Below are positions 7,262 through 60,587 of a DNA stretch of 61,182 nucleotides, in pieces; position 1 is the first letter of the stretch, and each line of letters starts with the position of its first letter. Source of the stretch: Acidimicrobiales bacterium (GTDB lineage Bacteria; Actinomycetota; Acidimicrobiia; Acidimicrobiales; SZUA-35); the NCBI GenBank assembly GCA_024638805.1, contig JAHEJO010000002.1:1-61182 (forward strand). The letters are read 5' to 3'. Both the position numbers and the translations under genes were made by a program. The notes under the pieces are model-generated. The model had not been told where the DNA came from. It saw only the letters and a program-made list of their open reading frames with translations, and made no database searches.

Positions 7262-8506
7262 GTGATGAGCTCGTTGCTCCCCACACCAGAGCCCGATCGC
7301 GACGCGGTCCTCGCTTTCGTGGGTCATCACCTCGCCGGTCTGTACTCAGGCCCTCTGACCGGATCCCACGCATTCGTGGGGGGCCAGAGCCACGCCGACG
7401 CGGCCCTGGCCCGGTTCGACGTCACGGGCTACGCGAACAACCGCAACGAGGTCTGGCCCGCACCGAGACGGGGTGCTTCGGGCCTGTCGCCCTACATCCG
7501 TCACGGTTACCTCCAGCTGTCGCGGGTCTGGAACCACGTGTCCGGCCCGGACGAGGATGTCGCCCGATTTCGTGAAGAACTCATGTGGCAGGAGTACGCC
7601 CGACATTGGTATGCCCGTCTCGGGGGCCGATCTGCGACCAGTGTGCGCAACGATCTGGCGGGGTCGGCCTCGGGAGCAGGGCGGTGGGACAGGTCGATGG
7701 CCTGCCTGGACATGTGCGTCGAAGAGCTGGAGGACGACGGCTGGTTGGTCAACCAGGCCAGGATGTGGCTCGCCTCCCACTGGTCGGTGCGCCAGGGCGG
7801 TCGCTGGGTCGACGGTGAAGACGAGTTCTTCATCCACCTGCTCGATGGCTCGCGTGCGGCAAACCGGCTCGGCTGGCAGTGGACGACCGGCGCCGGCTCG
7901 TCGAAGACGTATGGGTTCAGCCGCTGGCAGGTGGAGAAACGGGCGCCTGGCCTGTGCGGGCAGTGCGACCGCTCGGCCGACTGCCCGATCGAGCATTGGC
8001 CCTCGGACCCCGAGCTCATCAAACTGGAGCCCGAACCCCTGCTGCGCCGCACGATAGATCCGATCGCCGAAGCCGGACCGCACCAAACCGAACGATCCGC
8101 CGACCCTGAGATCGTCTGGTTGACGGGCGAGTCACTGGGGGATGACGACCCGGTTCTGCGAGCCCATCCCGATCTGCCGGTGGTCTTCGTCTTCGATGAG
8201 CCACTGCTCCGACGGCTGGCCCTGTCCGCCAAACGTCTGGTGTTCCTGACCGAGGGCCTGGCCGAACTTGCTGTGGAACGCCCGGTCGAACTACACCGGT
8301 CCCGACCCGGCGTCGCCCTGGCCGGACGGGCTGCCGCGGTCACGTTCGCGCCGGTGCCCGGTTTCCGCAGGCTGCTCGAGCGCCGTGCCGATCCGGTCCA
8401 CGTGGCGGAGTTGCATCCCTACCCTTGGCTTCGGCGTCCCACCGGTGGGACCGTGTCATCGTTTTCGGCCTGGCGGCAACGGGTGAGCGAGCCGGCCGGT
8501 GTCTGA
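7262..8506 (+). CDS. Photolyase/cryptochrome-family FAD-binding protein with atypical domain order
   Basis: Residues ~10-240 align by eye to the photolyase FAD domain (GLSPYIRHGYLQLSRV, ELMWQEYARH, GWLVNQARMWLASHW, LLDGSRAANRLGWQWTTGAGS). Residues ~283-385 (EIVWLTGESLGDDDPVL...PVVFVFDEPLL) resemble the normally N-terminal alpha/beta domain. Confidence 0.8.
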   Translation: MMSSLLPTPEPDRDAVLAFVGHHLAGLYSGPLTGSHAFVGGQSHADAALARFDVTGYANNRNEVWPAPRRGASGLSPYIRHGYLQLSRVWNHVSGPDEDVARFREELMWQEYARHWYARLGGRSATSVRNDLAGSASGAGRWDRSMACLDMCVEELEDDGWLVNQARMWLASHWSVRQGGRWVDGEDEFFIHLLDGSRAANRLGWQWTTGAGSSKTYGFSRWQVEKRAPGLCGQCDRSADCPIEHWPSDPELIKLEPEPLLRRTIDPIAEAGPHQTERSADPEIVWLTGESLGDDDPVLRAHPDLPVVFVFDEPLLRRLALSAKRLVFLTEGLAELAVERPVELHRSRPGVALAGRAAAVTFAPVPGFRRLLERRADPVHVAELHPYPWLRRPTGGTVSSFSAWRQRVSEPAGV

Positions 8507-28760: not shown

Positions 28761-31292
<2,532 letters not shown>

Positions 31293-31337
31293 TCAACCCC
31301 GGCTCGTGATGGCGGCGGCGATGGCGGTCCCATCGCT

Positions 31338-32909
31338 GTGGCGGGCTCGTTCGGCGATCTAGTGTTGGCTACCGTGGCCCAGCATTACGCAGTTCGATGC
31401 CGTCGACTTCTGCTGTTGCTGGCCGTCCTGCTGGTGTCGGCGTGCAACGCCGAGGTGCTGACCACGGTGACCGTCGAAGAGGACGGATCGGGCCAGGTCG
31501 AGGTGGCGCTGGTGATGGAACCGGAGCTGGCCGCCCAACTCCCCGATCTGCAAAGTGCCGGGATCGCATTGGCTGATGCGAGGGCGAGCGGATGGGTGGT
31601 GGAACCACGTGAACTCACCGACGACGGCAGCACCCGGATTCGGGCCACCAAGGAATTCGCCAATCCCGATCAGTTCAGCGAGGTGATCAACGAGGTCAGC
31701 GGGTCGGACGGGCTGTTCCGGGACTTCGAGCTGGAACGGGTCAGCAGCTTCGCCCAGGTCTCGTATCGGTTGACCGGTCAGCTCGCGCCGGCCGGGTTCA
31801 CGTCGTTCGGAGACGCTGACCTCGATGCCCTGCTCGGTGAACCGCTCGACTCCTTCGTCCAACGGATCGGCGCCGATCCGGCGGCGACGACGGTCCGGTT
31901 GGCATTGACCCTGCCCGGTGAGGTGCCGCCGGACGGGTCGAACGGCACTCGCCTGGACCAGGCGTCGGACTCGACTACCCGATTCTGGAGGGTCACCTTG
32001 GCATCGACCCAGCCGGTCTCGGTCCGATCCGAGAGCACCACGCGTGAGATCGCCGCTCTGGTCGCTCTGGGTGTCGCGGTGCTGACCGGTGTGGTCGCAT
32101 TGTTGCTCGCCCTCGCCGTCGTGCTGCGTCTCGTCCAATCCCGGCAGAAGCCCACGCCGACGCCGACGAACCGTCCCTCGGCCCGGGCACCGCGCAAAGT
32201 CGAGACCGAGTCCCCACCCGGCGAGTTCGACGGCGCCACGGAATCGATGGTGGCGACCAACCCGACCGTCGTGGCCCTGGACGGGATGGGCGTGCTGTAC
32301 GGCTCGGGCGCCGACATCGACGAGTTTCTGGTGCCGTTCTGCTTCGAGAAGGGTTCGACGCTGACCGCCGACGAGATCGCCGGCCGGGCCCGGCAATTGA
32401 GCCTTGGCCGTATCGAACCGTCGGCGTTCTGGCACTTGGTGGGCGTGGACGGCAACCCGGACGATCTCGACGACGAGTATCTCGCCAAACACGCGCTCAA
32501 ACCGGGGGTGGTGAAGTTCCTGAGGTCGCTGCGTGACCGTGGGGTCAGGGTCGCCTGCATCACCAACGACTCGGCGCTGTGGGCTCGCAAGCTACGCCAG
32601 CGGCACAGCCTCGACACCCTGATCGACCCCTGGGTGGTGAGCGGCAGCGTGGGCGTCCGCAAGCCGGATCGACCGATCTTCGAAGTCCTGCGCCGTCTCA
32701 CCGGCGAGGCGCCGGCCAACATCCTGATCGTCGACGATCAGTTGCACATTCTCGATGCCGCCCGGGCCCTCGGCTACCGGACCGCGTGGTTTGCTCCCGA
32801 CGGAGAGGCCACCGACGCGAGGGGACATGCCATCCTCCGCAGCTTCGACGTGCCCGAACAGAAACCCCGACCGGAATCGGCGTCGGCTCCTCAGCCATCA
32901 TCGCCCTGA
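31338..32909 (+). CDS. Lipoprotein-like (LppM/DUF3153-like) domain - TM - HAD-family hydrolase fusion
   Basis: Lipobox-like LLVSAC. Extracytoplasmic domain TVTVEEDGSGQVEVALVM. TM IAALVALGVAVLTGVVALLLALAVVL. C-terminal HAD motifs VVALDGMGVLY, ITNDS, VRKPDRPIF, IVDD. Confidence 0.65.
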   Translation: MAGSFGDLVLATVAQHYAVRCRRLLLLLAVLLVSACNAEVLTTVTVEEDGSGQVEVALVMEPELAAQLPDLQSAGIALADARASGWVVEPRELTDDGSTRIRATKEFANPDQFSEVINEVSGSDGLFRDFELERVSSFAQVSYRLTGQLAPAGFTSFGDADLDALLGEPLDSFVQRIGADPAATTVRLALTLPGEVPPDGSNGTRLDQASDSTTRFWRVTLASTQPVSVRSESTTREIAALVALGVAVLTGVVALLLALAVVLRLVQSRQKPTPTPTNRPSARAPRKVETESPPGEFDGATESMVATNPTVVALDGMGVLYGSGADIDEFLVPFCFEKGSTLTADEIAGRARQLSLGRIEPSAFWHLVGVDGNPDDLDDEYLAKHALKPGVVKFLRSLRDRGVRVACITNDSALWARKLRQRHSLDTLIDPWVVSGSVGVRKPDRPIFEVLRRLTGEAPANILIVDDQLHILDAARALGYRTAWFAPDGEATDARGHAILRSFDVPEQKPRPESASAPQPSSP

Positions 32910-32970
32910 AGCCGGCCACCGTCGGCCCGGCAGCGGAGCGACTGTCACACCCTCTGACGAGGCTGGGGTC

Positions 32971-34314
32971 ATGAGTTCGAGAGAAACGACCCACCGATGC
33001 AACGAGTGTGGGTACGTCCACCACAAATGGCAGGGCCGCTGCGCAGGATGCGGCCAGTGGGGCACCCTGCCGGACAAGCCATCGTCGCTGCCGTCGATCT
33101 TCGCTGACGCACCGCTCAGACGCCTCGACGAGGTGGACGGGACGCAATCCATACCGATACCCACGACCGTCGCCGAGATCGACCGCGTTCTCGGCGGCGG
33201 ATTCGTACCCGGGTCCGTTTCGCTGCTCTCGGGCGAACCGGGGATCGGAAAGAGCACCCTCACCCTCCAGCTCGCGTTGCGGATCGCTCGCAGCGGGGCC
33301 GCGGTCGTGCTGGTCACCGGCGAGGAGGCACCGACCCAGGTGGCGGCCCGAGCCGGGCGGATTCACAGCAGACCGATTCCTTCCTCCCTGGCCGTGCTCG
33401 ACACGCTGGAGACCGACCGGGTGGTGCACATCATCGAGGAGAATCGTCCGCAGATGGTCATCGTCGATTCTGTGCAGACGTTGCGACTGGGCGAGGAAGG
33501 CAGCCCGGGGTCCGCCTCCCTCTTGCGCAGCGTCGCCGGCAGACTCGCCGAGGCGGCCAAGAAGCACACGGTGTCGCTGTTGCTGATCGGCCATGTCACA
33601 AAGGACGGCGGCCTGGCCGGCCCCCGGACACTGGAGCATCTGGTCGACACCGTGCTGTCCTTCGAAGGCGACCGCAGCACCGATCTCCGGTTCCTGCGAT
33701 CGGTCAAACACAGATTCGGTGCGACGAGCGAAGTCGGACTGTTCGAAATGGTCGGCACCGGACTTCGTCCTGTTCAGGACCCGAGCGCGCGGTTTCTCGC
33801 CGATCGCCACCCCGACCTTCCCGGATCTTCTGTCGCTCCGGTCCTGGAGGGGCGCCGACCGGTCATGGTCGAGATTCAGGCTCTGGTCGCCAAACACAGC
33901 GAGAACACCGGTGTGTTGGCTCATGCCGTGCCGTCCGGTCGTCTGCGTGTGGTCACCACCGTCGCCGGACAGTACCTCGACGGGGCGTTGACCCGGTCCG
34001 ACATCCTGGTGTCGGCTGCCGGAGGAGCCAAGGTGTCCGACCCCGGAGCGGATCTCGCGATGCTCCTGGCGATGATCTCGGCCGAGACCGGCGTTCGGGT
34101 TCCGACCGGACTGGCAGCGTGCGCCGAAATCGGTCTGAGCGGCGAACTCCGGCGAGTCACAACCATGGAACAGCGACTGCACGAAACGTTTCGCCTCGGC
34201 TTCACCGAATGTGTCGTCCCTCGTTCGTGCCCCGAGGGTCCCACCGGCCTGCGACTCCTGCGCTGCTCCACGGTCAACGACGCGGTTCAGGCGCTGATCG
34301 GGGCAAAGGTCTGA
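32971..34314 (+). CDS. radA: DNA repair protein RadA
   Basis: Zn finger CNECGYVHHKWQGRCAGCGQWG. Walker A GEPGIGKST. VKHRFGAT (KNRFG motif). Lon-like C-terminus. Confidence 0.95.
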   Translation: MSSRETTHRCNECGYVHHKWQGRCAGCGQWGTLPDKPSSLPSIFADAPLRRLDEVDGTQSIPIPTTVAEIDRVLGGGFVPGSVSLLSGEPGIGKSTLTLQLALRIARSGAAVVLVTGEEAPTQVAARAGRIHSRPIPSSLAVLDTLETDRVVHIIEENRPQMVIVDSVQTLRLGEEGSPGSASLLRSVAGRLAEAAKKHTVSLLLIGHVTKDGGLAGPRTLEHLVDTVLSFEGDRSTDLRFLRSVKHRFGATSEVGLFEMVGTGLRPVQDPSARFLADRHPDLPGSSVAPVLEGRRPVMVEIQALVAKHSENTGVLAHAVPSGRLRVVTTVAGQYLDGALTRSDILVSAAGGAKVSDPGADLAMLLAMISAETGVRVPTGLAACAEIGLSGELRRVTTMEQRLHETFRLGFTECVVPRSCPEGPTGLRLLRCSTVNDAVQALIGAKV

Positions 34315-34326
34315 CGTGTCGTCACA

Positions 34327-35424
34327 TTGCGCATCTACACTTCGGCAATGGGCCAGTCCGATCGAGCGCTACTGAAGGTTCTCGCTCAGATCGCGCCGGG
34401 TACTCCGTTGCGGGAAGGGTTGGATCGGGTGCTGCAATCCGGTAGGGGCGGTCTGATCGTCGTCGGCGACAGCCCGGAGGTTCTCAACATCTGCTCGGGT
34501 GGGTTCCTGCTGGACTCGGCCTTCACCCCCCAGCGTCTGGCCGAGGTGGCCAAGATGGACGGTGCGATCATCCTGGCACCGGATGCGGTACGGATTGCCC
34601 GCGCCAACGTCCACCTCGTACCCAACCCCAACGTGCCCACCACCGAGACCGGGACCCGTCATCGGACCGCTGAACGCGTCGCCCGGTCTCTTGACGTTCC
34701 TGTCGTCGCCGTTTCCCAGAGCCGCAAGGAAATCCAGGTGTACGTGTCGGAGGACCGCCATGCACTAGAACCGGTGAGTCGCCTGCTCGAACGCTCCAAC
34801 CAGGCAATTCAGACCCTCGAACGCTATCGCAGCCGCCTGGCCACCGTGTCGGCCAACCTGTCGGCTCTGGAGGTCGAGAACCTGGTCACCCTCCGAGATG
34901 TGATCGAAGTGCTTCAACGCACCGAGATGGTCGCCCGAATCGCCAAGGAGGTCGAACTGAACCTGGTGGAGTTGGGTTCGGACGGCCGACTCGTCCGGTT
35001 GCAGCTCGAGGAACTGATGGGCGGGGTCATCGACGATCGTCGATTGCTCATTCGCGACTACTTCACCGAGGATGCCGGGTTCCACATCGAGCAGGCCATG
35101 GACGCCCTCGCCGAACTCAGCAACGACGCACTGTTCAACGAGGAGGTTCTGGCCAAGACATTGCATCTCTCAGCGTCGGTGACCGACCTTGACGGCTCGT
35201 TGGAGTCACGGGGTTATCGTCTGCTGTCCAAGGTTCCGCGCCTGACCTCGATGATGGTCGATGAAATCGTCGAACGGTTCGAGAGCCTCGACGCCGTTCT
35301 GGCCGCCACGACCTCCGAGCTACAGGAAATCGACGGCATCGACCCGTTCCGCGCCCGCGGCGTCAAGGAAAGTCTCACCCAGCTCGTGGAAACATCGATA
35401 CTCGATCGTCTCCAGCGCAGCTAG
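34327..35424 (+). CDS. disA: DNA integrity scanning protein DisA (diadenylate cyclase)
   Basis: LAQIAPGTPLREGLDRVL, GGLIVVG, DGAIIL, TRHRTAER. C-terminal HhH region. radA-disA synteny. TTG 34327 or ATG 34348. Confidence 0.92.
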   Translation: MRIYTSAMGQSDRALLKVLAQIAPGTPLREGLDRVLQSGRGGLIVVGDSPEVLNICSGGFLLDSAFTPQRLAEVAKMDGAIILAPDAVRIARANVHLVPNPNVPTTETGTRHRTAERVARSLDVPVVAVSQSRKEIQVYVSEDRHALEPVSRLLERSNQAIQTLERYRSRLATVSANLSALEVENLVTLRDVIEVLQRTEMVARIAKEVELNLVELGSDGRLVRLQLEELMGGVIDDRRLLIRDYFTEDAGFHIEQAMDALAELSNDALFNEEVLAKTLHLSASVTDLDGSLESRGYRLLSKVPRLTSMMVDEIVERFESLDAVLAATTSELQEIDGIDPFRARGVKESLTQLVETSILDRLQRS

Positions 35425-40217: not shown

Positions 40218-42524
40218 GTGAAGCGTGTTGTGGAACACGATCCGTGGCGGATCGTCCAGAACGGATTCGATCCCGAGAACAACCGGATCTACGAGAGCCT
40301 GTTCTCCCTCGGCAATGGCCACTTCGGCGGCCGCGGCAATCACGAGGAGACCTACACCGGGGATTCTCTGCCGGGCAACTATCTGGCCGGGGTCTACTAT
40401 CCCGATCCGACCCGGGTTGGGTGGTGGAAGAACGGTTACCCGGAGTACTTCGCCAAAGTGCTGAACGCGGCGGATTGGAAACGGTTGCGCATCACCGTCG
40501 ATGGCGACGAACTGGATCTGGCCACCGCCGAGGTGACCGACTTTCGGCGGGTGCTCCACATGGATCATGGAACGCTCGATCGAAGGTTCAGCGCCACCTT
40601 GTCCAACGGTGCGGTGGTCACCGTCGAAGTCCTCAGGTTCGTCAGCCTGCCCGATCCCCAACTCGGCGCGCTCCGTTACAGGCTCACCTGCCAGCGTGCA
40701 GCCGACGTGACGATCACCTCCGCCGTCGAGGGCGATGTCGTCAACGAGGACTCCAACCATGACTTCGGGTTCTGGGATCCGGTGGAAGAGATTGCGATCG
40801 GGAGCCGCACGATCGTCATGGCGAGGACGAAGAAGACCCGATTCGTCGCTGCGGTCGGCTCCGACGTCTCGGTGGCGCTCGATGACGCCGAGGTGACGTT
40901 CGACCCAACGCCATTCACCCGCTCACTCTCCGCGGCAAGCACGATCTCGTTGTCCGTCGATTCGGGCCGAACGGTCGAGATCGTGAAGTACGGCTCGAAT
41001 GTGACGTCGAGGGACGTGGAGCCCCCTCGGATACTCCAGAGGTCCAACGAGGTGCTCGATCGTGCAGCATCGGTCGGCTTCGACGGACTGCTCGCACAGC
41101 ACATCGACGCCTGGAGGCACAAGTGGGAAACGAGTGACGTGGTCATCGAAGGCGACGTTGCCGCCCAGCAGGGCATTCGATTCAGCATCTTCGGCCTGAA
41201 CAGCACGTTCACCGGTGACGACCCCGACCTGAACATCGGGCCAAAAGGATTCACGGGCGAGAAGTACGGGGGTGTCACCTACTGGGACACCGAGGCGTTC
41301 TGTTTGCCGTTCTATCTGGCCACCTCCGAACCCGAGGTGAGCAAGAACCTGCTCCGCTACCGACATCGGCAGCTCCCGAAGGCGATCGAGAACGCCACCA
41401 AGCTGGGCTTCTCCGGCGGTGCGGCGCTGTTCCCGATGGTGACGATCAACGGCGAGGAATGCCACAACGAGTGGGAGATCACATTCGAGGAGATCCACCG
41501 CAACGGCGCGATCGCATTTGCCATCCTCAACTACATCCGCCACACCGGCGATGCCCACCATCTCCTCGAAGGTGGGCTCGAGGTGCTCATCGCCATCGCC
41601 CGGTTCTGGTCGCAGCGGGTGTCGTGGTCCGAGGTCCGTTCGGCGTGGGTGATGCTCGGCGTCACGGGTCCCAACGAATACGAGAACAACGTCGACAACA
41701 ACTGGTACACCAACCTCTTGGCTCAGTGGACCCTGCGGTACACACTCGACGCGATCTCCCAGGCCCGATCGCTCGACGAGAACCTGACCGATCAGATCCT
41801 CGTTTCGGTCGGATTCGACGAACCGACCGAACCGGCCCGGTGGTCGGTGATCGCCGACACCATCCACCTGCCCGAAGATCCCGAACGCGGTGTCTTCCTG
41901 CAACAGTCCAACTATCTGGACAAGGAGCAGGTGACCGTCGAGGACCTTGACCCCGCCCACCGACCGATCAACAAGCATTGGTCATGGGACCGGATCCTCA
42001 GGTCGCCGTATATCAAGCAGGCTGACGTCCTACAGGGTTTGTGGGTGTTCGAGGATGACTACCCACTCGATGTTCTGGCTCGCAACTTCGACTTCTATGA
42101 ACCTCGAACGGTTCACGAATCCTCGCTCTCACCGTCGATCCATGCCGTGCTCGCCGTCCGATTGGGCCGTCTCGACAAGGCGCTCGAGATGATGCTCCGG
42201 ACAGCTCGATTGGACCTCGACGACTACAACGACGACACCGACGACGGGTGCCACACGACGAGCATGGCCGGTACTTGGATCGCGGCCGTCTTGGGCTTCG
42301 GTGGAATGCGGGTGATCGGGGACGAACTGCACCTCGATCCGATCCTCGCTCCGGGCTGGACCGAACTGACGTTCCAGATCCTGTTTCGGGGCACACGACT
42401 GAGGGTCTCGGTAGACGAGGCAGGAGTGCGGATTCAGAACCAATCAAAGAGTGACGTGTCCGTCGTCCTGGCGCAGGAACGGCTGAGCGTCGGCGGCGGA
42501 CAGATCATGATCGTGGCGACCTGA
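40218..42524 (+). CDS. Glycoside hydrolase family 65 phosphorylase (maltose/trehalose/kojibiose phosphorylase type)
   Basis: ESLFSLGNGHFGGRGNHEE, GFTGEKYGGVTYWDTE, TGPNEYENNVDNNWYTN. About 770 aa. GTG 40218 (the track ORF starts at 40176). Confidence 0.9.
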   Translation: MKRVVEHDPWRIVQNGFDPENNRIYESLFSLGNGHFGGRGNHEETYTGDSLPGNYLAGVYYPDPTRVGWWKNGYPEYFAKVLNAADWKRLRITVDGDELDLATAEVTDFRRVLHMDHGTLDRRFSATLSNGAVVTVEVLRFVSLPDPQLGALRYRLTCQRAADVTITSAVEGDVVNEDSNHDFGFWDPVEEIAIGSRTIVMARTKKTRFVAAVGSDVSVALDDAEVTFDPTPFTRSLSAASTISLSVDSGRTVEIVKYGSNVTSRDVEPPRILQRSNEVLDRAASVGFDGLLAQHIDAWRHKWETSDVVIEGDVAAQQGIRFSIFGLNSTFTGDDPDLNIGPKGFTGEKYGGVTYWDTEAFCLPFYLATSEPEVSKNLLRYRHRQLPKAIENATKLGFSGGAALFPMVTINGEECHNEWEITFEEIHRNGAIAFAILNYIRHTGDAHHLLEGGLEVLIAIARFWSQRVSWSEVRSAWVMLGVTGPNEYENNVDNNWYTNLLAQWTLRYTLDAISQARSLDENLTDQILVSVGFDEPTEPARWSVIADTIHLPEDPERGVFLQQSNYLDKEQVTVEDLDPAHRPINKHWSWDRILRSPYIKQADVLQGLWVFEDDYPLDVLARNFDFYEPRTVHESSLSPSIHAVLAVRLGRLDKALEMMLRTARLDLDDYNDDTDDGCHTTSMAGTWIAAVLGFGGMRVIGDELHLDPILAPGWTELTFQILFRGTRLRVSVDEAGVRIQNQSKSDVSVVLAQERLSVGGGQIMIVAT

Positions 42525-50548: not shown

Positions 50549-52843
50549 ATGACAACCACGACGTCCGACCTGATCTCCGGCCATGACCTCCGAGGCGCCG
50601 ACTACTGCCGGGCTCGCTCCGATGCAGCCGACGCCTGGCTCCTCGAGCTCTTCGCCACGGCGGTCGGCGACGACGCCCGGAAGGTGGCACTCGTCGCCGT
50701 CGGTGGCTACGGACGCGGTGTCCTGTGGCCGCAGAGCGATCTCGACCTGGTCCTGTTTCACAATCGACGGCGAGACATCGCAGCGATCGCCGAGCGGCTC
50801 TGGTACCCGATCTGGGACCGGAACCTCAAGCTCGGTCATGCGGTGCTGACCTCCAAGGAGGCCGCCCAGGTGGCGAGCGCCGAACTCGAGCGGGCGACCG
50901 CGTTTTCGGCGATGCGTCTGATCGCCGGTGATCCGCAGGTGTTGCACGACGTGGAGTCCGCTGTCGTCAAGACGAGGTCAAAGCGCGCATCCTCCCATTT
51001 GCGGGAGCTGGCCCGCATGGTCGACGATCGGCACGTCGAGGCGGGTGACGTTGCGTTCCTACTCGAACCCGACATCAAAGAAGGACGGGGTGGCCTCCGC
51101 GACCTCGATTCGCTGCGCTGGGCCGAAACGATGCACCCGGGCTTCGCGGCCGACCTGCTCGACGGCCTCGACGATGCCGCCGAACTCCTCGGGAGGGCTC
51201 GGGTCGAGTTGCATCGTTCCACCGGCCGCACCAGCAATCGGCTGACCCTCGATGAACAGGATGTCGTGGCTCGAGCGCTCGGCATCGATTCGGGTCAACA
51301 ACTCATGAAGGACATCTCGCAGGTCGCCCGGCGGGTGGCCTGGAACTCCGACGAGGCATGGCGGCGCTGGCGTCGAGCCGAGCGGGACAGAGCCGCCCCC
51401 CGCCGCGATCGCGATCAGCTCGTGACCGACGACATCCAGATCCGACAGGGAGCCCTGGCGCTGACCATAACTGCAAATCCGGCGCAACGTCCCGAGCTGT
51501 TGCTCGAATTGGCCGTGCATGCTGCCACCAGATCCCTGCCGATCGATCGGTCCACGTTGCGCCGGCTGGCCCTCGAGCGTCCGAGCCTCGACGACGCGTG
51601 GGACGAACGCACCCGCCAACTGCTGGCCGAGTTGTTCCTGGCCGGTCCGGTCGCTCTCTCGGTTGTGGAAGACCTGGATCACTTCGACCTGATGACCCTG
51701 ATCCTCCCCGAATGGGAAGCGGTCCGAAGCCTTCCGCAACGCAACGTGCTGCACACCTTCACCGTCGATCGTCACCTGTGCGAAACGGCGGTCAAAGCGG
51801 CAGCCCTGGCCGATCGCGTCCACCGGCCCGATCTTCTGGTGATCGGCTCGCTTCTTCATGACATCGGCAAGGGATTCCCGGGCGACCACACCGAGACCGG
51901 AATGGAGGCCATCCACCGGATCGCCGGCCGGATGAAGTACTCCGACGCCGACACAGCGGTCCTGGTCGATCTGTGCCGCCACCATCTCCTTCTCTCCGAC
52001 GTGGCGGTCCGAAGGAACCTCAGCGACGAAGGGACGATCCGCAGCGTTGCCGCCGCGGTCGATTCACCGGAGTTCCTCCACCTGCTGGCGGCCATGAGCG
52101 AAGCCGATTCCATCGCGACCGGACCTGCCGTCTGGGGTTCGTGGAAGAAGGGCCTGTTGGCTGAGTTGGTCTATCGCACCGAGGCGCTGCTGAACGACGG
52201 AACGCTCGGCGACGATCCACCCGAGTTCCCGTCGGCCGAGATCCTTGATCTCATGGGCCGGCACCGTCGACACATCGAGGTCAGCGGCAGCCGGATCACC
52301 GTGGTCGAACGCAATCAGCCGGGTGTGTTCGCAGCGATTGCCGGTGTCCTGGTGATGCAGGGGCTCGACGTGATCGAAGCGGCTTCCGCGACCGCAGGCG
52401 ACATGTCGGCGAACACCTTCATGGTGACCACGGGAGGCGACCATCACATCGACTGGGAACCCGTGACCCCTCTGCTCGAGCGGGCGCTCGACGGACGTCT
52501 TGCGCTGTCGGCACGGGTGGCGCGACGGGCCGAACAGCTCCAGAAGTATCAGCGCCGGCTGTCAGCCACCCCACCGGTCACTTCCGTGACCCTCGACAAT
52601 CACCTCTCCTCGGTAGCCACGGTGGTCGACGTGCACGCCCCCGACTCGGTCGGTCTGTTGTATCGGGTCACCCGGGCCTTCGCCGACCTGCGGCTGGACA
52701 TCGGCAAAGCGACCGTGCAAACGTTGGGCCCTCAAGCGGTCGACAGTTTCTATCTCACCGATGCTGAAGGTCGAAAGCTCGATGGGCCGATGCTCAAGGA
52801 GTTGCGACTGGCCATACTCCATGCGGTGGAGGTGGATCAGTGA
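50549..52843 (+). CDS. glnD: [Protein-PII] uridylyltransferase/uridylyl-removing enzyme
   Basis: NTase VALVAVGGYGRGVLWPQSDLDLVLF. HD domain SLLHDIGKG. Two C-terminal ACT-like repeats (GVFAAIAGVL, GLLYRVTRAF). Confidence 0.9.
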   Translation: MTTTTSDLISGHDLRGADYCRARSDAADAWLLELFATAVGDDARKVALVAVGGYGRGVLWPQSDLDLVLFHNRRRDIAAIAERLWYPIWDRNLKLGHAVLTSKEAAQVASAELERATAFSAMRLIAGDPQVLHDVESAVVKTRSKRASSHLRELARMVDDRHVEAGDVAFLLEPDIKEGRGGLRDLDSLRWAETMHPGFAADLLDGLDDAAELLGRARVELHRSTGRTSNRLTLDEQDVVARALGIDSGQQLMKDISQVARRVAWNSDEAWRRWRRAERDRAAPRRDRDQLVTDDIQIRQGALALTITANPAQRPELLLELAVHAATRSLPIDRSTLRRLALERPSLDDAWDERTRQLLAELFLAGPVALSVVEDLDHFDLMTLILPEWEAVRSLPQRNVLHTFTVDRHLCETAVKAAALADRVHRPDLLVIGSLLHDIGKGFPGDHTETGMEAIHRIAGRMKYSDADTAVLVDLCRHHLLLSDVAVRRNLSDEGTIRSVAAAVDSPEFLHLLAAMSEADSIATGPAVWGSWKKGLLAELVYRTEALLNDGTLGDDPPEFPSAEILDLMGRHRRHIEVSGSRITVVERNQPGVFAAIAGVLVMQGLDVIEAASATAGDMSANTFMVTTGGDHHIDWEPVTPLLERALDGRLALSARVARRAEQLQKYQRRLSATPPVTSVTLDNHLSSVATVVDVHAPDSVGLLYRVTRAFADLRLDIGKATVQTLGPQAVDSFYLTDAEGRKLDGPMLKELRLAILHAVEVDQ

Positions 52844-53523
52844 GCGATCGTGACGTGAGCGCCCAAGATCTGTTGCGGTGGTCCGAGGCCCTCGCCGGCA
52901 TCGCCCAGACCGGCCTGGCGTTCTCCGAGGTCACCTTCGAACGCGAACGGTACGAGGAGATTCTCAACGTGGCCGGTGAGATCAAGGCCCGGGCCGCCGC
53001 CGGCGATCCGGCGGCATTCGTCGACGAATGGATGACATCGACCCGCGAAGGACTGGCCGGCTACGCCACCCCCAAGATCGCCATCGGGGCGGTTGTCGGC
53101 AACGATGCCGGAGAAATGCTGATGATCCAGCGGGCCGACAGCGGCATTTGGCTCTATCCCACCGGCTGGGCCGATGTGGGCTATTCAGCAGCCGAGGTCG
53201 CCGAGAAAGAGGTCGCCGAGGAAACCGGGATCGTGTGTGAGGCGATCCGACCTCTCGGGGTCTTCGACGGTCTCCGGCTCGGCTTCACCCGGATCCCTCT
53301 CTATTCGATCGTGTTCCACTGCCGGGCTGTCGGTGGTGATCTCCAGGCACATCCTCATGAAGTGGCGGACCTTGGATGGTTCACGCCGGACAACCTGCCG
53401 ACTCCCATCGCCAGCCAGGACCGCTGGCTCGATCTCGCCTTCGCCGCCGTTCGAGGCGAGTCGATCGACGTCTACTTCGACAAACCCCGCCCCAACGTCT
53501 GGTTGAGTCCTGACCAGGAGTGA
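52840..53523 (+). CDS. NUDIX hydrolase with N-terminal Nudix_N_2-type helical domain
   Basis: GTGA overlap with glnD. LLRWSEALAGIAQTGLAFSE. Nudix box GWADVGYSAAEVAEKEVAEETGI. Confidence 0.85.
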   Translation: MSDRDVSAQDLLRWSEALAGIAQTGLAFSEVTFERERYEEILNVAGEIKARAAAGDPAAFVDEWMTSTREGLAGYATPKIAIGAVVGNDAGEMLMIQRADSGIWLYPTGWADVGYSAAEVAEKEVAEETGIVCEAIRPLGVFDGLRLGFTRIPLYSIVFHCRAVGGDLQAHPHEVADLGWFTPDNLPTPIASQDRWLDLAFAAVRGESIDVYFDKPRPNVWLSPDQE

Positions 53524-53546
53524 TCCTTACCTGCCGCTCCGGACTG

Positions 53547-55118
53547 TCAGAAGTCGGTCTTGACACCACCTTCGGCCACCCTGCGGGCAACGTAGTCATC
53601 GAGTTCGGCAATTCGGTCCTCGGGAAGCGCAGGCGTGCGGTAGGCCTCGAGAAACTCGCCCACCAAGGTCTCCGCTTTCTGCTCGACCGTCGGCCGACCG
53701 GCTTCATCCCAGCTCTCGAAGTTGCGCCAGTCCGACAGCATCGGGGAATAGAAGGCATTCTCGTAGCGCGCCTGTGTGTGGGCGACCCCGAAGAAGTGCC
53801 CGCCCGGGCCCACCTGGGCGATCGCCTCGAAGGCCAACGTGGTGTCGTCGACGATCAGCGGCTCCAGGAAGGTCTGCAACATCTGGAGCAGGTCCGCGTC
53901 CATCACCATCTTTTCGAAGGATGCTCGAAGACCTCCCTCCATCCAGCCGGCGGCGTGGAAGATCATGTTGGCACCTCCCATCACCGCTCCCCACAGGCTG
54001 AACACGGTCTCCCATGCCGCCTGGGCGTCGAGGGCGTTGGCGGCACACACACCTGAGGATCGGTAGGGAATCCGATACCGGCGGGCCAGTTGGCCGCCCA
54101 ACAGAGCGGCTTGCATGTATTCGGGGGTACCGAAGGCGGGGCTGCCGGACTTCATGTCGACGTTGCTGGTGAAGCCGCCGTACATGACCGGGGCTCCCCG
54201 GCGCACGACCTGCGTCATCACGATACCCGCCAGCGCTTCGGCGTTCTGCTGGGCGACGGCGCCGGCGATGGTCACCGGTGCCATCGCGCCGGCAAGGGTG
54301 AAGGGAGTGATGACGATGAGTTGATTGCGGGCCGAGAACTCCATGATGCCTTGCAGCATCGGTATGTCGAGCCGCAGCGGCGATGAGGTGTTGATGATGC
54401 TGAGGACCGATGGTTCGATGTCCAGCCGCTCGTCGTCGAGCCCCCGGGCGATCCGCACCATCTCGAGGCAATCACGGTTGCGTTGGCGCCCGAGCGAATA
54501 GGCGTGGATGACCTTGTCGCTCAGGGTCAGCAGATCGCGGGTGCAGTGCAGATGTCGGACCGAGGAATGGATGTCGGTGGGCTCGACCGGGTAGCCGCCG
54601 TGCAGGTGAACGGCGTTGAGCACATGGCTGAGCTTCACGAGGTTGCGAAAATCTGCCGTGTTGCCCGAGCGACGATCGCCGGCGATGTCCGATGCGTTGG
54701 GTGTGCTGGCCACCGCCCCGAATGCTGTGTGGCGACCACCCATGCGCAGGTTCCGTTCGGGGTTGACGGCGTGCAGCGTGAACTCGGCAGGAGCGCTTGC
54801 CACGTAGTCCAACACCATTTCTCGACCGAACCGGACGCGCTCGCTGTCGGCGTCGACGTCGGCGCCGGCCGCGCTCAGAAGATGACGCGCATCGGTGTCG
54901 AGGACATCCATACCGATGTCCTCGAGGATCGACAGCGATGCGATGTGGATCGCCTCGAGCTGGTCGTCGCTGACGAGGCGGGTCGGCTCGAACGCAAGAG
55001 AGGGCTGTCGCCACGGCAACTGTGAGGGACCCGCAGCGCTGGCTCGATCGGCCCGTTTCGAGCTACGGCCGCCCCGGCGACGACGCCCGCCGCTTGCGTC
55101 GACGGTGTCATCGCCCAC
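53547..55118 (-). CDS. MttB-superfamily (trimethylamine methyltransferase-like) protein, non-pyrrolysine type
   Basis: 523 aa, continuous ORF with no in-frame TAG. IHIASLSILEDIGMDV, GGFTSNVDMKSGSPAFGTPE. The overall pattern fits MttB/MtgB-like proteins. Confidence 0.85.
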   Translation of the reverse strand: MGDDTVDASGGRRRRGGRSSKRADRASAAGPSQLPWRQPSLAFEPTRLVSDDQLEAIHIASLSILEDIGMDVLDTDARHLLSAAGADVDADSERVRFGREMVLDYVASAPAEFTLHAVNPERNLRMGGRHTAFGAVASTPNASDIAGDRRSGNTADFRNLVKLSHVLNAVHLHGGYPVEPTDIHSSVRHLHCTRDLLTLSDKVIHAYSLGRQRNRDCLEMVRIARGLDDERLDIEPSVLSIINTSSPLRLDIPMLQGIMEFSARNQLIVITPFTLAGAMAPVTIAGAVAQQNAEALAGIVMTQVVRRGAPVMYGGFTSNVDMKSGSPAFGTPEYMQAALLGGQLARRYRIPYRSSGVCAANALDAQAAWETVFSLWGAVMGGANMIFHAAGWMEGGLRASFEKMVMDADLLQMLQTFLEPLIVDDTTLAFEAIAQVGPGGHFFGVAHTQARYENAFYSPMLSDWRNFESWDEAGRPTVEQKAETLVGEFLEAYRTPALPEDRIAELDDYVARRVAEGGVKTDF

Positions 55119-55560
55119 CGGTTCCTCCGCCGGGCAGGTTGTGACGGTAGACGTTGGTGTTCCTGGGTTCGAACCCCAGCCGCTGGTAGAGACGATTGGC
55201 GGCCTCCCGACTGGGCCGGCTGGTCAGGTCGACCGACACCGCGCCGTGGTCGCTGGCCATGTCCAGCGCATACCGGTTGAGCAGCTCGCCGACGCCCATC
55301 CCGCGGGCTGCACCATCGACGACGACATCTTCGATCCAGGCCCGTACGCCGGTCGGGATCCGGAAGATCACGAGGGTCAGACAGCCGACGATGCTGCCGT
55401 CGTCGTCGGTGGCGACGAGGAGATGCGAGGCGTCCGATTGGACGAGGTCAGCCAGCTCCTCGGTCGTCGGGGGAGGGTTCGAGGTGGAGAGTTGCGGGAT
55501 CAGATGTTTCATGGCGTCGGTCAGGGACGGAGTGACGTCGGAAGCCTCTGCTATCTGCAC
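55108..55560 (-). CDS. GNAT family N-acetyltransferase
   Basis: 150 aa. VVVDGAARGMGVGELLL (acetyl-CoA binding Q/RxxGxG/A), ANRLYQRLGF. The 3' end overlaps the MttB start by 11 nt. Confidence 0.85.
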   Translation of the reverse strand: MQIAEASDVTPSLTDAMKHLIPQLSTSNPPPTTEELADLVQSDASHLLVATDDDGSIVGCLTLVIFRIPTGVRAWIEDVVVDGAARGMGVGELLNRYALDMASDHGAVSVDLTSRPSREAANRLYQRLGFEPRNTNVYRHNLPGGGTGGR

Positions 55561-55591
55561 TCCCCAAGTATGGGGCCGGTACCGTGAGCTT

Positions 55592-56422
55592 GTGGCATTA
55601 CTGGACTACTCCGACAAGCCCGAGTTCCACTCACCGGTTCTGATCATGGCCTTCGAGGGTTGGAACGACGCCGGCGACGCTGCCTCATCGGCTGCCCACT
55701 ACATCTCACAACAAGTGAACGCCGAGGTCTTCGCTCGCATGGATCCCGAGCCGTTCTACGATTTCCAGAACACCAGACCTCTGGTCCGCCTCGACGGCTC
55801 GTCACGTCTGATCGACTGGCCGGACAACACCTTCGGCCACGGCTCTCTCGGCGGCCGGGATCTGATCATCCTCCGGGGAATCGAACCGCAGTTGCGTTGG
55901 CGAACCTATTCCGAAACGATCAGCGAACTCGCCTCTGCCGTAGGCGTGGACATGGTCGTCAGCCTCGGTGCTCTCATCGCCGATGTGGCCCACACCCGGC
56001 CCTCCACGATCTACGGATCGGCGATCACCCCTGACCTGCGCAAGCGGCTCGATCTCGAACCGTCGACCTATGAAGGACCGACCGGAATCGTCGGCGTCGT
56101 TCACACCGTGATGCACAACGCCGGACTCGATTCGGTCTCGTTGTGGGGTGCGGTACCGAGCTACGTGCCCCATGCCCGCTCGCCCAAGGTCGCCAGAGCA
56201 CTGGTGGAGAGGGTGTCTCGACTGCTCGATCTGCCGATCGAGGTCGACGAGCTGATGGTGGCCGCCGAGGACTACGAGCGTCAGATCAACCTCATGATCG
56301 CCGACGACGAGGACATGGCCGAATACGTCGCCAATCTCGAGTCCGAATACGACGCAGCCATGAGTTCGGGGTCGGGCAACGAGCTGATCAGCAAGATCGA
56401 GGACTTCCTCAAGGACCAATAG
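55592..56422 (+). CDS. PAC2 (proteasome assembly chaperone 2-like) family protein
   Basis: PVLIMAFEGWNDAGDAAS, IILRGIEPQLRW, GPTGIVGVV. Acidic C-terminus. GTG 55592. Confidence 0.8.
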   Translation: MALLDYSDKPEFHSPVLIMAFEGWNDAGDAASSAAHYISQQVNAEVFARMDPEPFYDFQNTRPLVRLDGSSRLIDWPDNTFGHGSLGGRDLIILRGIEPQLRWRTYSETISELASAVGVDMVVSLGALIADVAHTRPSTIYGSAITPDLRKRLDLEPSTYEGPTGIVGVVHTVMHNAGLDSVSLWGAVPSYVPHARSPKVARALVERVSRLLDLPIEVDELMVAAEDYERQINLMIADDEDMAEYVANLESEYDAAMSSGSGNELISKIEDFLKDQ

Positions 56423-57937: not shown

Positions 57938-59284
57938 GTGAGCGGTGGCACCATCACGATCGAGCAGGCAGAAGCGGCGCTGACCGCGGACCAGCGGAGC
58001 GAGATCTTCGGATGGAAGATGTACGACTGGGGATGGTCGGCCTTCAGCACGACCGTGACGACCGCTCTGCTCGGTCCCTACCTCCTGGCGTTGGGCGAGG
58101 ATGCCGGCGGTGTCCGCCTCCTGGGCTACACGATCGATGAGGCCAGCTTCTACCCGTACGTGGTGAGCCTGTCCGCACTGCTCCAGATCATCGTCCTGCC
58201 GCTGGTCGGAGCAGCGGCGGACTACACCGACCGGAAGAAGAAGCTGATGCTCGGCCTCTCCTACCTGGGGTCGATCGCGACGGCTGGTCTCTTCTTCGTG
58301 CGGGAACCCACCATCGTTCTCGGCGGCGTCCTGTTTCTTGTGGCCGCCGTGGCGTTCTCGGCCGCATCGGTGATCTACAACTCCTATCTACCCGACATCG
58401 CTCCTCCGGTCTTGCGTGATCGGATCAGTTCGGCCGGCTTTGCCGTCGGATATCTGGGCGGCGGTCTGTGGCTCGCCGCCAACTTCGTGCTGATCGCAGT
58501 CCTCGATGATGGTGTCGCCGTGCGACTCAGCCTCGGCGGCACCGGACTGTGGGCGATGTACTTCATCTGGCGATATCCGGGACGGTTGCTGCAACCGCGA
58601 CCGGCGGCCCGGGTCAAGCCGGCCGGAGTTCGGTGGTTGACCCTCAGCGTCGGTTCGGTGTTCACGACCCTGCGGGAGCTCAAGCGGGACCATCCCGTCA
58701 CCTTCCGCTATCTGATTGCGTACCTCGTCTTCAACGATGGGATCGCGACGGTGATCACCGTGGCGACCTCGTTCGCAGCCGACGAACTCGACGCGTCCGC
58801 CACCACTCTGCTCCTGCTCGTCCTGCTGATCCAGTTCGTCGCCATTCCCGGTGCGGTTGCATTCGGTCGGCTGGCGGAACGGATCGGTGCGAAACGTGCA
58901 CTGATGGCCAACCTCGTCGTCTGGGTTCTCCTCGTCGTGTACGCCTATGTCCTACTGACCTCGGTCGCCCAGCTGTGGGTGATGGGCGTGGTGCTCGCCC
59001 TGGTGCTCGGCGGGTCCCAAGCGCTCAGTCGATCGTTGTACGCCCAGATGGTCCCCGGCGACAAGGAGGCCGAGTACTTCGGGTTCTACGAGATCGCCGC
59101 CCGGGGCACGTCCTGGATCGGACCACTCGCCTTTGCTGTCGCCAACGACATTCTCGACTCCCAGCGGCAGGCGATCCTCGTGTTGGTCGTGTTCTTCATT
59201 CTGGGTCTTGGGTTCCTCGCCCCTGTTCAGGTTCGACGGGGCATGCTCGACGCCGGCCAGGATCCCACCGGCGTCGTGCTCTGA
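57938..59284 (+). CDS. MFS transporter (UMF1/Atg22-like)
   Basis: GWKMYDWGWSAFSTTV is the family-typical N-terminus, followed by about 12 TMs. Start is GTG 57938, or ATG 57866 (which would overlap the divergent alaX start). Confidence 0.8.
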   Translation: MSGGTITIEQAEAALTADQRSEIFGWKMYDWGWSAFSTTVTTALLGPYLLALGEDAGGVRLLGYTIDEASFYPYVVSLSALLQIIVLPLVGAAADYTDRKKKLMLGLSYLGSIATAGLFFVREPTIVLGGVLFLVAAVAFSAASVIYNSYLPDIAPPVLRDRISSAGFAVGYLGGGLWLAANFVLIAVLDDGVAVRLSLGGTGLWAMYFIWRYPGRLLQPRPAARVKPAGVRWLTLSVGSVFTTLRELKRDHPVTFRYLIAYLVFNDGIATVITVATSFAADELDASATTLLLLVLLIQFVAIPGAVAFGRLAERIGAKRALMANLVVWVLLVVYAYVLLTSVAQLWVMGVVLALVLGGSQALSRSLYAQMVPGDKEAEYFGFYEIAARGTSWIGPLAFAVANDILDSQRQAILVLVVFFILGLGFLAPVQVRRGMLDAGQDPTGVVL

Positions 59285-59310
59285 GCCAGGGTGTGAGCCA
59301 GTTGGCGCTA

Positions 59311-59326
59311 TCGAACAAACGTTCGA
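59311..59326 (+). promoter_or_regulatory. LexA (SOS) box, perfect actinobacterial consensus
   Basis: TCGAAC-AAAC-GTTCGA, extended to 9-bp arms (CTATCGAAC/GTTCGATAG, 59308-59329). TTGGCG (59302-59307) lies upstream and TAGTGT (59327-59332, TANNNT) abuts it. Confidence 0.7.
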
Positions 59327-59338
59327 TAGTGTTGGGCG

Positions 59339-59491
59339 ATGGAACAACCACCCGTGACACACGCCGACACCGCCGAGGACTGGGAACAGGTTCGCCGTTC
59401 GGTCGCCATGTTGCCCCCCGGTGCCTGGGCCCTCAAACGTGAACAGGCGCTTCGTGCCCTCGCCGCCCTGATCCGCCTCCTCAAGGAGTAG
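59339..59491 (+). CDS. Candidate 50-aa leaderless micro-ORF downstream of the SOS box (not in ORF track)
   Basis: ATG 59339 is the first start after an in-frame TAG (59327-59329) and lies 7 nt after the -10-like TAGTGT. Product: MEQPPVTHADTAEDWEQVRRSVAMLPPGAWALKREQALRALAALIRLLKE. 37 of 50 third positions are G/C. No SD. Confidence 0.35.
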   Translation: MEQPPVTHADTAEDWEQVRRSVAMLPPGAWALKREQALRALAALIRLLKE

Positions 59492-59594
59492 CCAGCAGCC
59501 CGGGCGACAGACTACACCGGCCACGTCGGTCCGGGGAGTGCTCCGAACCGCTCGGGTGAGCGACCCGAACACCTCGGTGGGTTAGGGTCTTGGC

Positions 59595-60587
59595 GTGCGC
59601 CTGGTGGTCTTCTCCATCTGCAAAGATGAGGAGGAAACGATCGGTGAGGTGCTGGCGGGTATTCCCCGGTCGATCCTGGGTATCACCGAGATCATCACGC
59701 TGGTGGTGAGCGACGGGTCAACCGATCGAACGGTCGAGATCGCCGAGGCGCACGGCGCCCTCACGATCGCCGGCAGAGTGCAGCGGCGTCTTGCCTATCG
59801 TTTCCAGCAGGCGGTCGACCGGGCGTTGGAGTTACAGGCCGATATCGCCGTCAACATCGATGGCGACATGCAGTTCGATCCCGCAGACATCCCCTCCCTG
59901 ATCGCTCCGATCGTGGCCGGCGAGACGCAATTCGTGGCCGCCGATCGGTTCACCGACCCTGCCACCGGGAACAGACACAAGCCTGACGACATGCCGAGCG
60001 ACAAGTATTGGGGAAACCTGCTTGGAGCCAAGGTTGTCGGTGCGCTGACCGGGCAGCGGTTCAACGACGTCACGTGCGGATTCCGTGCCTACGGCCGCGA
60101 GGCGCTGCTTTCATTGAACATCAACACCAAGCACACCTACACCCAGGAGTCGTTTCAGGTGCTCGCTCAGGCCGGAATCCACATCGAGACCCTTCCCACA
60201 CGGGTTCGCTACTTCCCGGACCGTCAGTCCAGAGTGGTCACGGGCTTCTGGAGCTTCCTCGCAACGAGCGGCATCAACATCCTGCGCGCCTACCGGGACT
60301 TCGCCCCGCTCCGTTTCTTTCTCGCCTTGGGGATACTCCCTCTGGTTCTCGGGTTCGTCGGTGCGACATTCGTCGGGGGTCACTGGCTGGTGACCGGTCG
60401 AACGTCGCCGTACACGAGCCTTGGGATTCTCGGCGCCTACTCCTTCTCGCTCGGGCTCATGCTGTTCGTTGTAGGTCTGCTGGCCGACATGCAGGTCCGG
60501 TCAGCGAGGAATCAGGAGAAGATCCTCCGGCTACTCAAGGGAATCGTCCTCGCTCGAGATCGAAACGACTCGACCCTCGATCGGTGA
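59595..60587 (+). CDS. Family 2 glycosyltransferase with C-terminal TM segments
   Basis: VVFSICKDEEETIGEVL, VSDGSTDRT, NIDGDMQFDP. Two C-terminal hydrophobic helices. GTG 59595. Confidence 0.85.
   Translation: MRLVVFSICKDEEETIGEVLAGIPRSILGITEIITLVVSDGSTDRTVEIAEAHGALTIAGRVQRRLAYRFQQAVDRALELQADIAVNIDGDMQFDPADIPSLIAPIVAGETQFVAADRFTDPATGNRHKPDDMPSDKYWGNLLGAKVVGALTGQRFNDVTCGFRAYGREALLSLNINTKHTYTQESFQVLAQAGIHIETLPTRVRYFPDRQSRVVTGFWSFLATSGINILRAYRDFAPLRFFLALGILPLVLGFVGATFVGGHWLVTGRTSPYTSLGILGAYSFSLGLMLFVVGLLADMQVRSARNQEKILRLLKGIVLARDRNDSTLDR

Follow-up and report, generated by a model that had tools for sequence, protein, structure and literature searches.

A small-protein gene of the Acidimicrobiia with an apparently leaderless start behind a predicted LexA operator

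The DNA studied here is a stretch of 61,182 nt from an uncultured Acidimicrobiales bacterium (GenBank assembly GCA_024638805.1, contig JAHEJO010000002.1, positions 1 to 61,182), which we refer to as the window. Close to its end, between positions 59302 and 59491, a gene for a protein of 50 amino acids is preceded by a compact promoter region that carries a perfect match to the actinobacterial SOS box, the type of operator associated with the repressor LexA. A sequence-only reading of this DNA had proposed that a micro-protein is produced here from a leaderless mRNA under the control of LexA. The conservation of the open reading frame (ORF), of the box and of the spacing between them supports this proposal, in which the binding of LexA and the induction by DNA damage are the predicted parts. 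In our judgement, the locus is quite probably a single-gene SOS unit, that is, a LexA-repressed and leaderless small-protein gene that would be released when the DNA is damaged.

Operator, promoter and small gene

Read from the sequence, the promoter region has the order TTGGCG-ct-a-TCGAACAAACGTTCGA-TAGTGT-tgggcg-ATG, beginning at position 59302. Its central element, TCGAACAAACGTTCGA (TCGAAC-AAAC-GTTCGA, 59311-59326), agrees at 16 of 16 positions with the SOS box consensus TCGAAC-N4-GTTCGA of the clade (CGAACRNRYGTTYC) and is the sole perfect copy in the window, just as the sequence-only reading had it; one further GAAC-N4-GTTC is found at 42363, within a glycoside hydrolase family 65 (GH65) gene. 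At the given base composition, the chance of the core 14-mer is about 1.1e-6 per base. Counted from the A of the start codon as +1, the box extends from -28 to -13; it occupies the promoter spacer and abuts the -10 hexamer, and hence overlaps the core promoter in a placement in which a bound repressor would block transcription. The arms of the palindrome had also been described as reaching 9 bp, and this is true of the window itself (CTATCGAAC and GTTCGATAG, 59308-59329), but the extension is lost already in the closest relative (locus L001, introduced below), and the unit that is conserved is aaTCGAACAnnTGTTCGAta.

Directly touching the box is TAGTGT (59327-59332, plus strand), a -10 hexamer of the TANNNT type, which is followed after a gap of 6 nt by the start codon ATG (59339-59341, plus strand) at which the transcript is predicted to begin. 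The in-frame TAG inside the -10 hexamer is the last stop codon upstream, the ATG at 59339 is the first start codon past it, and no Shine-Dalgarno sequence lies ahead of this ATG. Further upstream, TTGGCG (59302-59307, plus strand) is a weak candidate for a -35 element. A generic sigma-70 scan calls no promoter at the box region, as is to be expected for an actinobacterial promoter of the TANNNT type; the promoter is predicted from the -10 hexamer and the geometry of the start. With a putative operator, a -10 element and a predicted leaderless start all within 30 bp, the site offers a clean natural example of such an arrangement.

The small gene itself (59339-59491, plus strand) encodes the 50-residue protein MEQPPVTHADTAEDWEQVRRSVAMLPPGAWALKREQALRALAALIRLLKE; it was assessed through its homologues, its codon-position entropy and an AlphaFold2 model. 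The GC content at codon positions 1, 2 and 3 (0.76, 0.47 and 0.75) resembles that of the flanking genes, in keeping with the earlier remark that the ORF has a coding-like third position.

Conservation of the gene and of its operator

A word-indexed search recovered 47 protein clusters with 57-100% identity, all of them hypothetical proteins from metagenome-assembled genomes (MAGs) of Acidimicrobiales or Actinomycetota or from metagenomes. The scan of a genome collection, in which each species was represented by one genome, yielded 59 loci whose labels are nearly all Acidimicrobiia or Actinomycetota MAGs; two of them, L030 and L043, come from the complete Acidimicrobiia genomes OZ245048.1 and OZ244139.1. 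When all of 1.84 billion representatives were searched with a profile, the family grew to 330 clusters (50% identity), whose proteins, with few exceptions, are 40-140 amino acids long. When the 47 clusters are aligned, an invariant core, E..RRSVAMLPP..A..RE, emerges behind an N-terminus of variable length; the invariant residues are E13, E16, R19-R20-S21-V-A-M-L-P-P27, A31, R34-E35, L41 and L44. The nucleotide entropy of this core in 58 loci is 0.88, 0.59 and 1.48 at codon positions 1, 2 and 3, respectively, and the corresponding pairwise differences number 17,789, 11,876 and 30,866. This concentration of the variation at the third codon position indicates that selection acts on the protein, and by this comparative measure we regard the ORF as a real gene under purifying selection. 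Among the genomes of the collection, the MAG MFD03551.bin.2.24 (L001) is the one most closely related to the window; the small protein is 100% identical in it, and the promoter DNA differs by a few bases.

The operator has been maintained together with the gene. Upstream of the core motif, at a distance of no more than 260 nt, 52 of the 59 loci have a perfect CGAAC-N4-GTTCG; among the remaining seven, two carry a box with one mismatch (L006 and L059), three are on contigs that end before the promoter, one is a spurious hit (L057), and one is boxless (L050). No additional CGAAC-N4-GTTCG occurs in the 415,665 nt of these 59 loci, for which 0.46 would be expected. In a promoter alignment anchored on the box, conservation is limited to aaTCGAACAnnTGTTCGAta and the -10 hexamer and falls to background level further upstream; the spacer of the box participates in this conservation, with A at position 6 and T at position 9. 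The box is kept whatever gene is present upstream, divergent ones included. A lack of conservation in relatives had been named beforehand as a finding that would speak against the proposal; both the ORF and the box are conserved, and the distance from box to start codon takes fixed values.

In most loci this distance is 13-15 nt, with the TANNNT hexamer straight after the box, and three variant clades depart from this layout. One has its box 32 nt from the start codon, over the -35 region, with a separate TAGGTT 6 nt before the start; another has a distance of 21 nt and a -10 hexamer of its own; and in the third the -10 hexamer, TATGTT, lies within the spacer of the box and the ATG follows 4-5 nt past it. 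In each of these variants, the -10 hexamer keeps the usual spacing to the start codon. Leaderless genes are described as lacking a Shine-Dalgarno sequence and as having a TANNNT -10 hexamer that ends 6-8 nt upstream of the start codon (PMC4633059). A TANNNT hexamer at this distance from an in-frame ATG or GTG is present in 82 of 100 box-bearing loci (in 60 of them at a distance of exactly 6 nt), as compared with 1.3% for random ATG or GTG codons. The leaderless geometry that had been read from the window alone is borne out by these figures, and, as judged from the aligned sequences, the predicted leaderless layout is conserved beyond the box itself.

A second, divergent subfamily, with the core VENRRRSIAMLPxGAPALNRDEAL, comprises 351 clusters from soil metagenomes. 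Its taxonomy was inferred from an epimerase gene that neighbors one of its members on the same contig, and the best named relatives of this epimerase are from Acidimicrobiia. Among the 65 subfamily-2 loci with enough upstream sequence, 40 possess a perfect box and 5 more have a box with one mismatch. Their promoters read box-cc-TATGCT-6 nt-GTG, and no other box is found within 183,127 nt of subfamily-2 loci. Several boxless copies retain the core while their N-terminus and upstream region have been replaced (L065, L080/L087/L092, L093/L104, L089/L117, L119/L120, L127 and L132/L133). Boxless copies are probably either paralogues, which would be under other control, or decaying copies.

In both subfamilies, database entries often start too far upstream and read through the operator, which then appears as IEHxF, SNxCS or RTxVR depending on the frame; P0043, P0045, P0048, P0059, P0077, P0078 and P0117 are examples of such entries. 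It appears that gene-prediction programs, where they look for a Shine-Dalgarno sequence, systematically misplace the starts of these predicted leaderless genes. In one locus (L061; ENA contig_63439), the small gene is surrounded by numerous called genes of very short length and by sigma-factor domains that are split, a pattern that suggests frameshift errors in the assembly.

Predicted protein and genomic neighborhood

The AlphaFold2 model of the protein, computed with an alignment of 47 sequences, has a confidence score (predicted local distance difference test, pLDDT) of 83 and comprises a disordered segment (residues 1-11), a helix (12-23), a PPG turn and a second helix (27-49); the disordered N-terminal residues are also those that vary among homologues. 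The peptide had been anticipated to be an amphipathic helix without a transmembrane segment. The latter part holds, as the maximum Kyte-Doolittle mean over 19 residues is 0.58 and the grand average of hydropathy (GRAVY) is -0.31, values of a hydrophilic protein without a transmembrane segment; the former part gives way to a disordered N-terminus and two helices. The product is, according to this model, a soluble cytoplasmic helical hairpin. Nearly invariant in 146 diverse members are E16, R19, R20, S21, A23, M24, L25, R34, A37 and L41. On the basis of the helix periodicity in the model, A23, M24, L25, A37 and L41 may be read as a packing face, and the polar surface formed by the charged residues and the serine (E16, R19, R20, S21 and R34) as a patch that would be exposed beside the turn. 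A conserved polar surface on a fold of such small size suggests binding to a conserved partner.

One metagenomic member, P0065 (114 amino acids), contains a tandem duplication of the domain within a single polypeptide. Its AlphaFold2 model, computed from the single sequence and of medium confidence (pLDDT 73), is a helical bundle in which one beta-bridge joins two G-x-x-[AV]-[LF] segments. This model hints at a dimerization in which the monomers would pair via the G-x-x-[AV]-[LF] segment.

Searches of family and structure collections gave no assignment. No Pfam family, SulA, LysM, DinI, RecX and PsiB included, scored above threshold for 14 members of the family, and nothing above threshold was found in NCBIfam, PADLOC and PHROGs for the protein or its distant relatives. 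A profile search of the PDB returned no match with E < 0.3, and a Foldseek search of the PDB with the monomer model and the tandem member P0065 none with E < 0.7. Hits near the thresholds, namely an interferon fragment, helices of ribonucleotide reductase and ZapB (E = 0.019), were set aside as chance matches to short helices.

The gene resides on a housekeeping chromosome. Directly upstream, an Atg22-like transporter gene of the major facilitator superfamily (MFS) stops 27 nt before the box, and downstream, following a spacer (59492-59594), a co-directional gene for a glycosyltransferase of family 2 (GT2; 59595-60587, plus strand) begins 104 nt after the ORF; genes for an enoyl-CoA hydratase and an AlaX-like editing protein flank the region on the minus strand. 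The remainder of the window encodes, among others, TopA, HolB, ClpC, RadA, DisA, GroEL, RpsA, GlnD and PAC2. The spacer folds no better than shuffled sequences (z = -0.36) and a terminator scan reports nothing in it; given that no terminator is evident, read-through into the GT2 gene is possible in the genome of the window. Rfam has no match in 59100-59700. A second hairpin (GUCGUGCUCUG-AGC-CAGGGUGUGA, 59270-59300) immediately precedes the one that the box can form and extends across the MFS stop codon; it may be the actual structure at the 3' end of the MFS transcript.

Across the loci, the gene upstream of the box varies: it encodes an MFS transporter or a sugar dehydrogenase-like protein, or is divergent, and in some loci the divergent gene is presumably one for an undecaprenyl-diphosphatase, as read by eye and not from a family search. 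The downstream gene is most often convergent (GNAT, dehydrogenase) or otherwise unrelated, and GT2 is the neighbor in the window and L001 only. An operon partner for the small gene was sought and rejected, as the neighbors vary between loci; the same variation points to the small gene itself as the regulated target. In the window (50549-56422) and in the loci L013-L042, the small gene is located within a few kb of genes for GlnD, PAC2 and what we take, by eye, to be a NUDIX hydrolase. The chromosomal neighborhood is stable, though gene order and orientation shift, and contains no operon partner. No copies of the family were found in the phages, plasmids and IMG/VR viral contigs searched, and the gene is not mobile. 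Neither the window nor any of the fetched loci encodes a LexA- or RecA-like protein (GDSM motif).

Further genes can be recognized elsewhere in the window. A co-directional run comprises genes for a ClpC-like ATPase (28761-31292), a hydrolase of the haloacid dehalogenase (HAD) family (31338-32909), a RadA/Sms-like protein (32755-34314) and DisA (34327-35424); clpC-radA-disA is a common Gram-positive arrangement, and no GAAC-N4-GTTC is present near this run (28761-35424). Two DNA-damage genes, neither of which has an SOS box, encode an MrfA-like DEAD-box helicase (mitomycin repair factor type, with the MrfA Zn-binding domain; 2635-5073, minus strand) and a photolyase FAD-binding-domain protein (7262-8506, plus strand). 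A full-length gene of the MttB family (trimethylamine methyltransferase-like) is located at 53547-55118 on the minus strand.

Predicted regulation, possible roles and rival explanations

The assignment of the box to LexA draws on comparison with other Actinobacteria. Their lexA promoters contain the motif aaTCGAACacatgtTCGAACat (PMC2248561), which the footprint aaTCGAACAnnTGTTCGAta fits, flanks included. Streptomyces SOS boxes begin with a TCGAAC half-site (PMC9380542), the lexA mRNA of Mycobacterium tuberculosis is leaderless (PMC2897130), and both LexA and RecA have been reported in genomes of Acidimicrobiales (PMC10205998). The SOS genes of M. tuberculosis and Streptomyces share with the small gene the operator class TCGAAC-N4-GTTCGA, the overlap with the core promoter and the leaderless ATG or GTG start (PMC3381160, PMC9380542, PMC2897130, PMC4633059); in contrast to these regulons, the small-protein family described here is absent from them, has no Pfam or NCBIfam model and belongs to the lineage Acidimicrobiia.

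Together, these features suggest the following course of events. In undamaged cells, a LexA dimer would be bound at TCGAACAAACGTTCGA, where it would fill the promoter spacer, touch the -10 hexamer and thereby exclude RNA polymerase. Upon DNA damage, self-cleavage of LexA, stimulated by RecA, would free the promoter, and transcription would begin at, or within one base of, the A of the ATG at 59339. The resulting leaderless mRNA would be translated without a Shine-Dalgarno sequence into the soluble 50-residue protein.

Other bacteria possess a number of LexA-repressed proteins that are mostly small, restricted to a lineage and harmful if produced out of schedule: SulA (Escherichia coli), YneA (Bacillus subtilis), ChiZ/Rv2719c (M. 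tuberculosis), DivS (Corynebacterium glutamicum), SosA (Staphylococcus aureus) and SidA/DidA (Caulobacter). Where operators are very strong in E. coli and B. subtilis, the product is one that does harm if it leaks, as with sulA and yneA. The near-perfect and strongly conserved operator of the small gene suggests tight repression, as would suit a product that is harmful when it is not needed, and in this respect the logic of the SOS division inhibitors would fit. There is no homology to the SulA, YneA, ChiZ, SosA or SidA types, the Pfam families SulA and LysM are not matched, and while YneA, ChiZ, SosA, SidA and DidA have a transmembrane segment or a LysM domain, the small protein has neither. 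The genes yneA, chiZ and divS lie divergent from lexA, whereas the small gene is not adjacent to lexA. With neither a transmembrane segment nor a LysM domain, and with no lexA next to its gene, the small protein fits neither the membrane-toxin type nor the YneA/ChiZ type. SOS-controlled type I toxins such as TisB and DinQ are likewise encoded by tiny LexA-controlled ORFs, but these are hydrophobic membrane peptides paired with antisense RNA antitoxins, and the protein studied here is hydrophilic and devoid of a transmembrane segment.

Closer in size and solubility are small cytoplasmic helical peptides that inhibit FtsZ, namely Kil of phage lambda, gp0.4 of phage T7 and MciZ of B. subtilis. 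These share with the small protein a length of 40-50 amino acids, solubility and the lack of a membrane anchor; the first two are phage genes, none is controlled by a LexA box in this manner, no sequence similarity is apparent, and no phage copies of the present family were found. DinI, RecX, PsiB and gp7 of phage GIL01 resemble it as small soluble proteins that belong to the SOS circuit and work purely through their binding to RecA or LexA (PMC4551915, PMC3062782). They differ in that there is no homology or fold match and no linkage to recA, whereas the mycobacterial recX sits immediately downstream of recA (PMC3062782).

Several observations weigh against the interpretation of the locus as a LexA-repressed gene for an SOS effector. 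The promoter had originally been described as having the box between -35 and -10 elements; both TTGGCG and TAGTGT are present and the TANNNT pattern is conserved, but the gap of 19 nt between the two is long, the -35-like hexamer is poor, and its position is not conserved across 53 aligned promoters of relatives. No second box is present in the approximately 660 kb of Acidimicrobiia DNA sampled, and consequently the regulon may be small, or the motif may belong to a dedicated regulator. In subfamily 2, the box is gone from about one quarter of the copies, which also differ in their N-terminus. The LexA motif used for comparison derives from lexA promoters of other Actinobacteria and may not be that of Acidimicrobiia; LexA binding and damage induction are predicted from the match to this motif together with the reported presence of LexA and RecA in Acidimicrobiales. 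The searches by sequence and fold link the protein to no partner, and a checkpoint or modulator role would be derived from analogy and from the strength of the operator.

These reservations have to be weighed together with explanations of the locus that dispense with LexA or with the small protein. If the palindrome were only the terminator of the Atg22-like MFS gene, its likeness to an SOS box would be fortuitous; its RNA does form a hairpin of 12 pairs, 24 nt past the MFS stop codon, and this hairpin and the second one together fold better than shuffled sequences (z = -3.8). Yet it has four G-C pairs of nine and is followed by GTGTTGGGCG rather than by a U-tract, so that it lacks the characters of an intrinsic terminator, and the terminator scan does not call it. 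Moreover, the palindrome persists where the upstream gene differs in family or is transcribed away from it, the identity of the arm bases is conserved and not just their pairing, the spacer positions A6 and T9 follow the LexA consensus, and the distance to the start codon is fixed. We give hardly any credence to this explanation, which the sequence-only reading had named as a possible refutation; a secondary role of the palindrome as an RNA hairpin, alongside that of an operator, may exist. Very improbable, too, is that the box is the true operator of a glycosyltransferase operon (59595 onward) with the 50-codon ORF as an untranslated or incidental leader. What favors it is the co-directional GT2 gene, 104 nt downstream in the window and L001, with no recognizable terminator in between, but elsewhere the next gene is convergent or unrelated, and purifying selection acts on the protein encoded by the ORF across hundreds of clusters; locally, read-through into GT2 may still occur as a side effect. 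A dedicated regulator other than LexA that shares the specificity for CGAAC-N4-GTTCG would explain why the approximately 660 kb of sampled sequence contains no second box. This sample is small in comparison with whole genomes, and a regulon of a few dozen sites would yield only a few hits in it. Furthermore, the footprint with its flanks fits the LexA motif of both Actinobacteria and Firmicutes, LexA is reported from Acidimicrobiales (PMC10205998), and no gene for a regulator accompanies the locus; such a regulator thus appears improbable to us.

If the small gene is under LexA control, as we think, its product would, by analogy, most likely be a tightly repressed SOS effector that acts through the binding of a partner, either as a checkpoint protein or as a modulator of RecA or LexA. 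A damage checkpoint, in which a cytoplasmic peptide would block cell division or replication, is a possible role that we put forward tentatively. Its more specific version is somewhat more doubtful still: an SOS cell-cycle checkpoint effector of Acidimicrobiia, in the form of a chromosomally encoded cytoplasmic helix-hairpin with about 40 conserved residues that would directly block a component of the divisome or replisome and would represent a structural class new for this role, unrelated to SulA, YneA/ChiZ/SosA and SidA/DidA. Alternatively, the SOS-regulated protein may be a feedback modulator that binds RecA filaments or LexA in the manner of DinI, RecX or GIL01 gp7. A small, soluble and helical protein with acidic residues (E13, E16) beside basic ones (R19, R20, R34) and a predicted SOS induction would suit this function, and the small phage-encoded LexA-binding protein GIL01 gp7 sets a precedent (PMC4551915). 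We consider this role rather unlikely, for there is no likeness in sequence or fold to DinI, RecX, PsiB or any PDB entry, the gene is unlinked to recA or lexA, and modulators, to judge from known cases, usually need no operator this tight. Less likely again is a small dimeric nucleic-acid-binding factor, for example a damage-induced regulator of transcription or translation, whose contacts would be made by the invariant RRS and R34 patch near the hairpin turn. The clustering of invariant basic residues at the turn, the basic C-terminal tail of many members, the leucine pattern of helix 2, which suits dimerization, and the natural tandem duplication P0065, which models as a helical bundle, speak in its favor; against it stand the lack of a match to helix-turn-helix, ribbon-helix-helix or other DNA-binding families and folds, and the P0065 model itself, which derives from a single sequence and is of medium confidence. 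The weight that remains after the checkpoint, modulator and nucleic-acid-binding roles falls to something else.

Whatever the partner of the putative LexA-controlled effector, the locus looks like an unannotated gene of the SOS regulon that is apparently class-wide in Acidimicrobiia, conventional in its regulation and with a product outside the described SOS families. By comparative evidence, the gene, its operator and its leaderless start are the supported elements of this prediction, and for a case argued by computation alone the assignment of the regulation has uncommonly good support. Acidimicrobiia are abundant in soil, freshwater, oceans and activated sludge and are almost uncultured, and what is known of SOS regulons comes from a few model organisms in culture; a description of the SOS regulon of Acidimicrobiia was not found in the literature searched. 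In annotations, this conserved micro-protein carries no name beyond hypothetical protein. Time and again, what couples DNA damage to the cell cycle in a given lineage has proved to be a small protein induced by the SOS response. For Streptomyces, the study of its regulon notes that this link is still to be identified (PMC9380542). The present family provides a soluble candidate of 50 residues with an invariant surface motif that is easy to synthesize and to test, and with it the Acidimicrobiia gain one LexA target, firmly predicted, whose product is something other than a repair enzyme.

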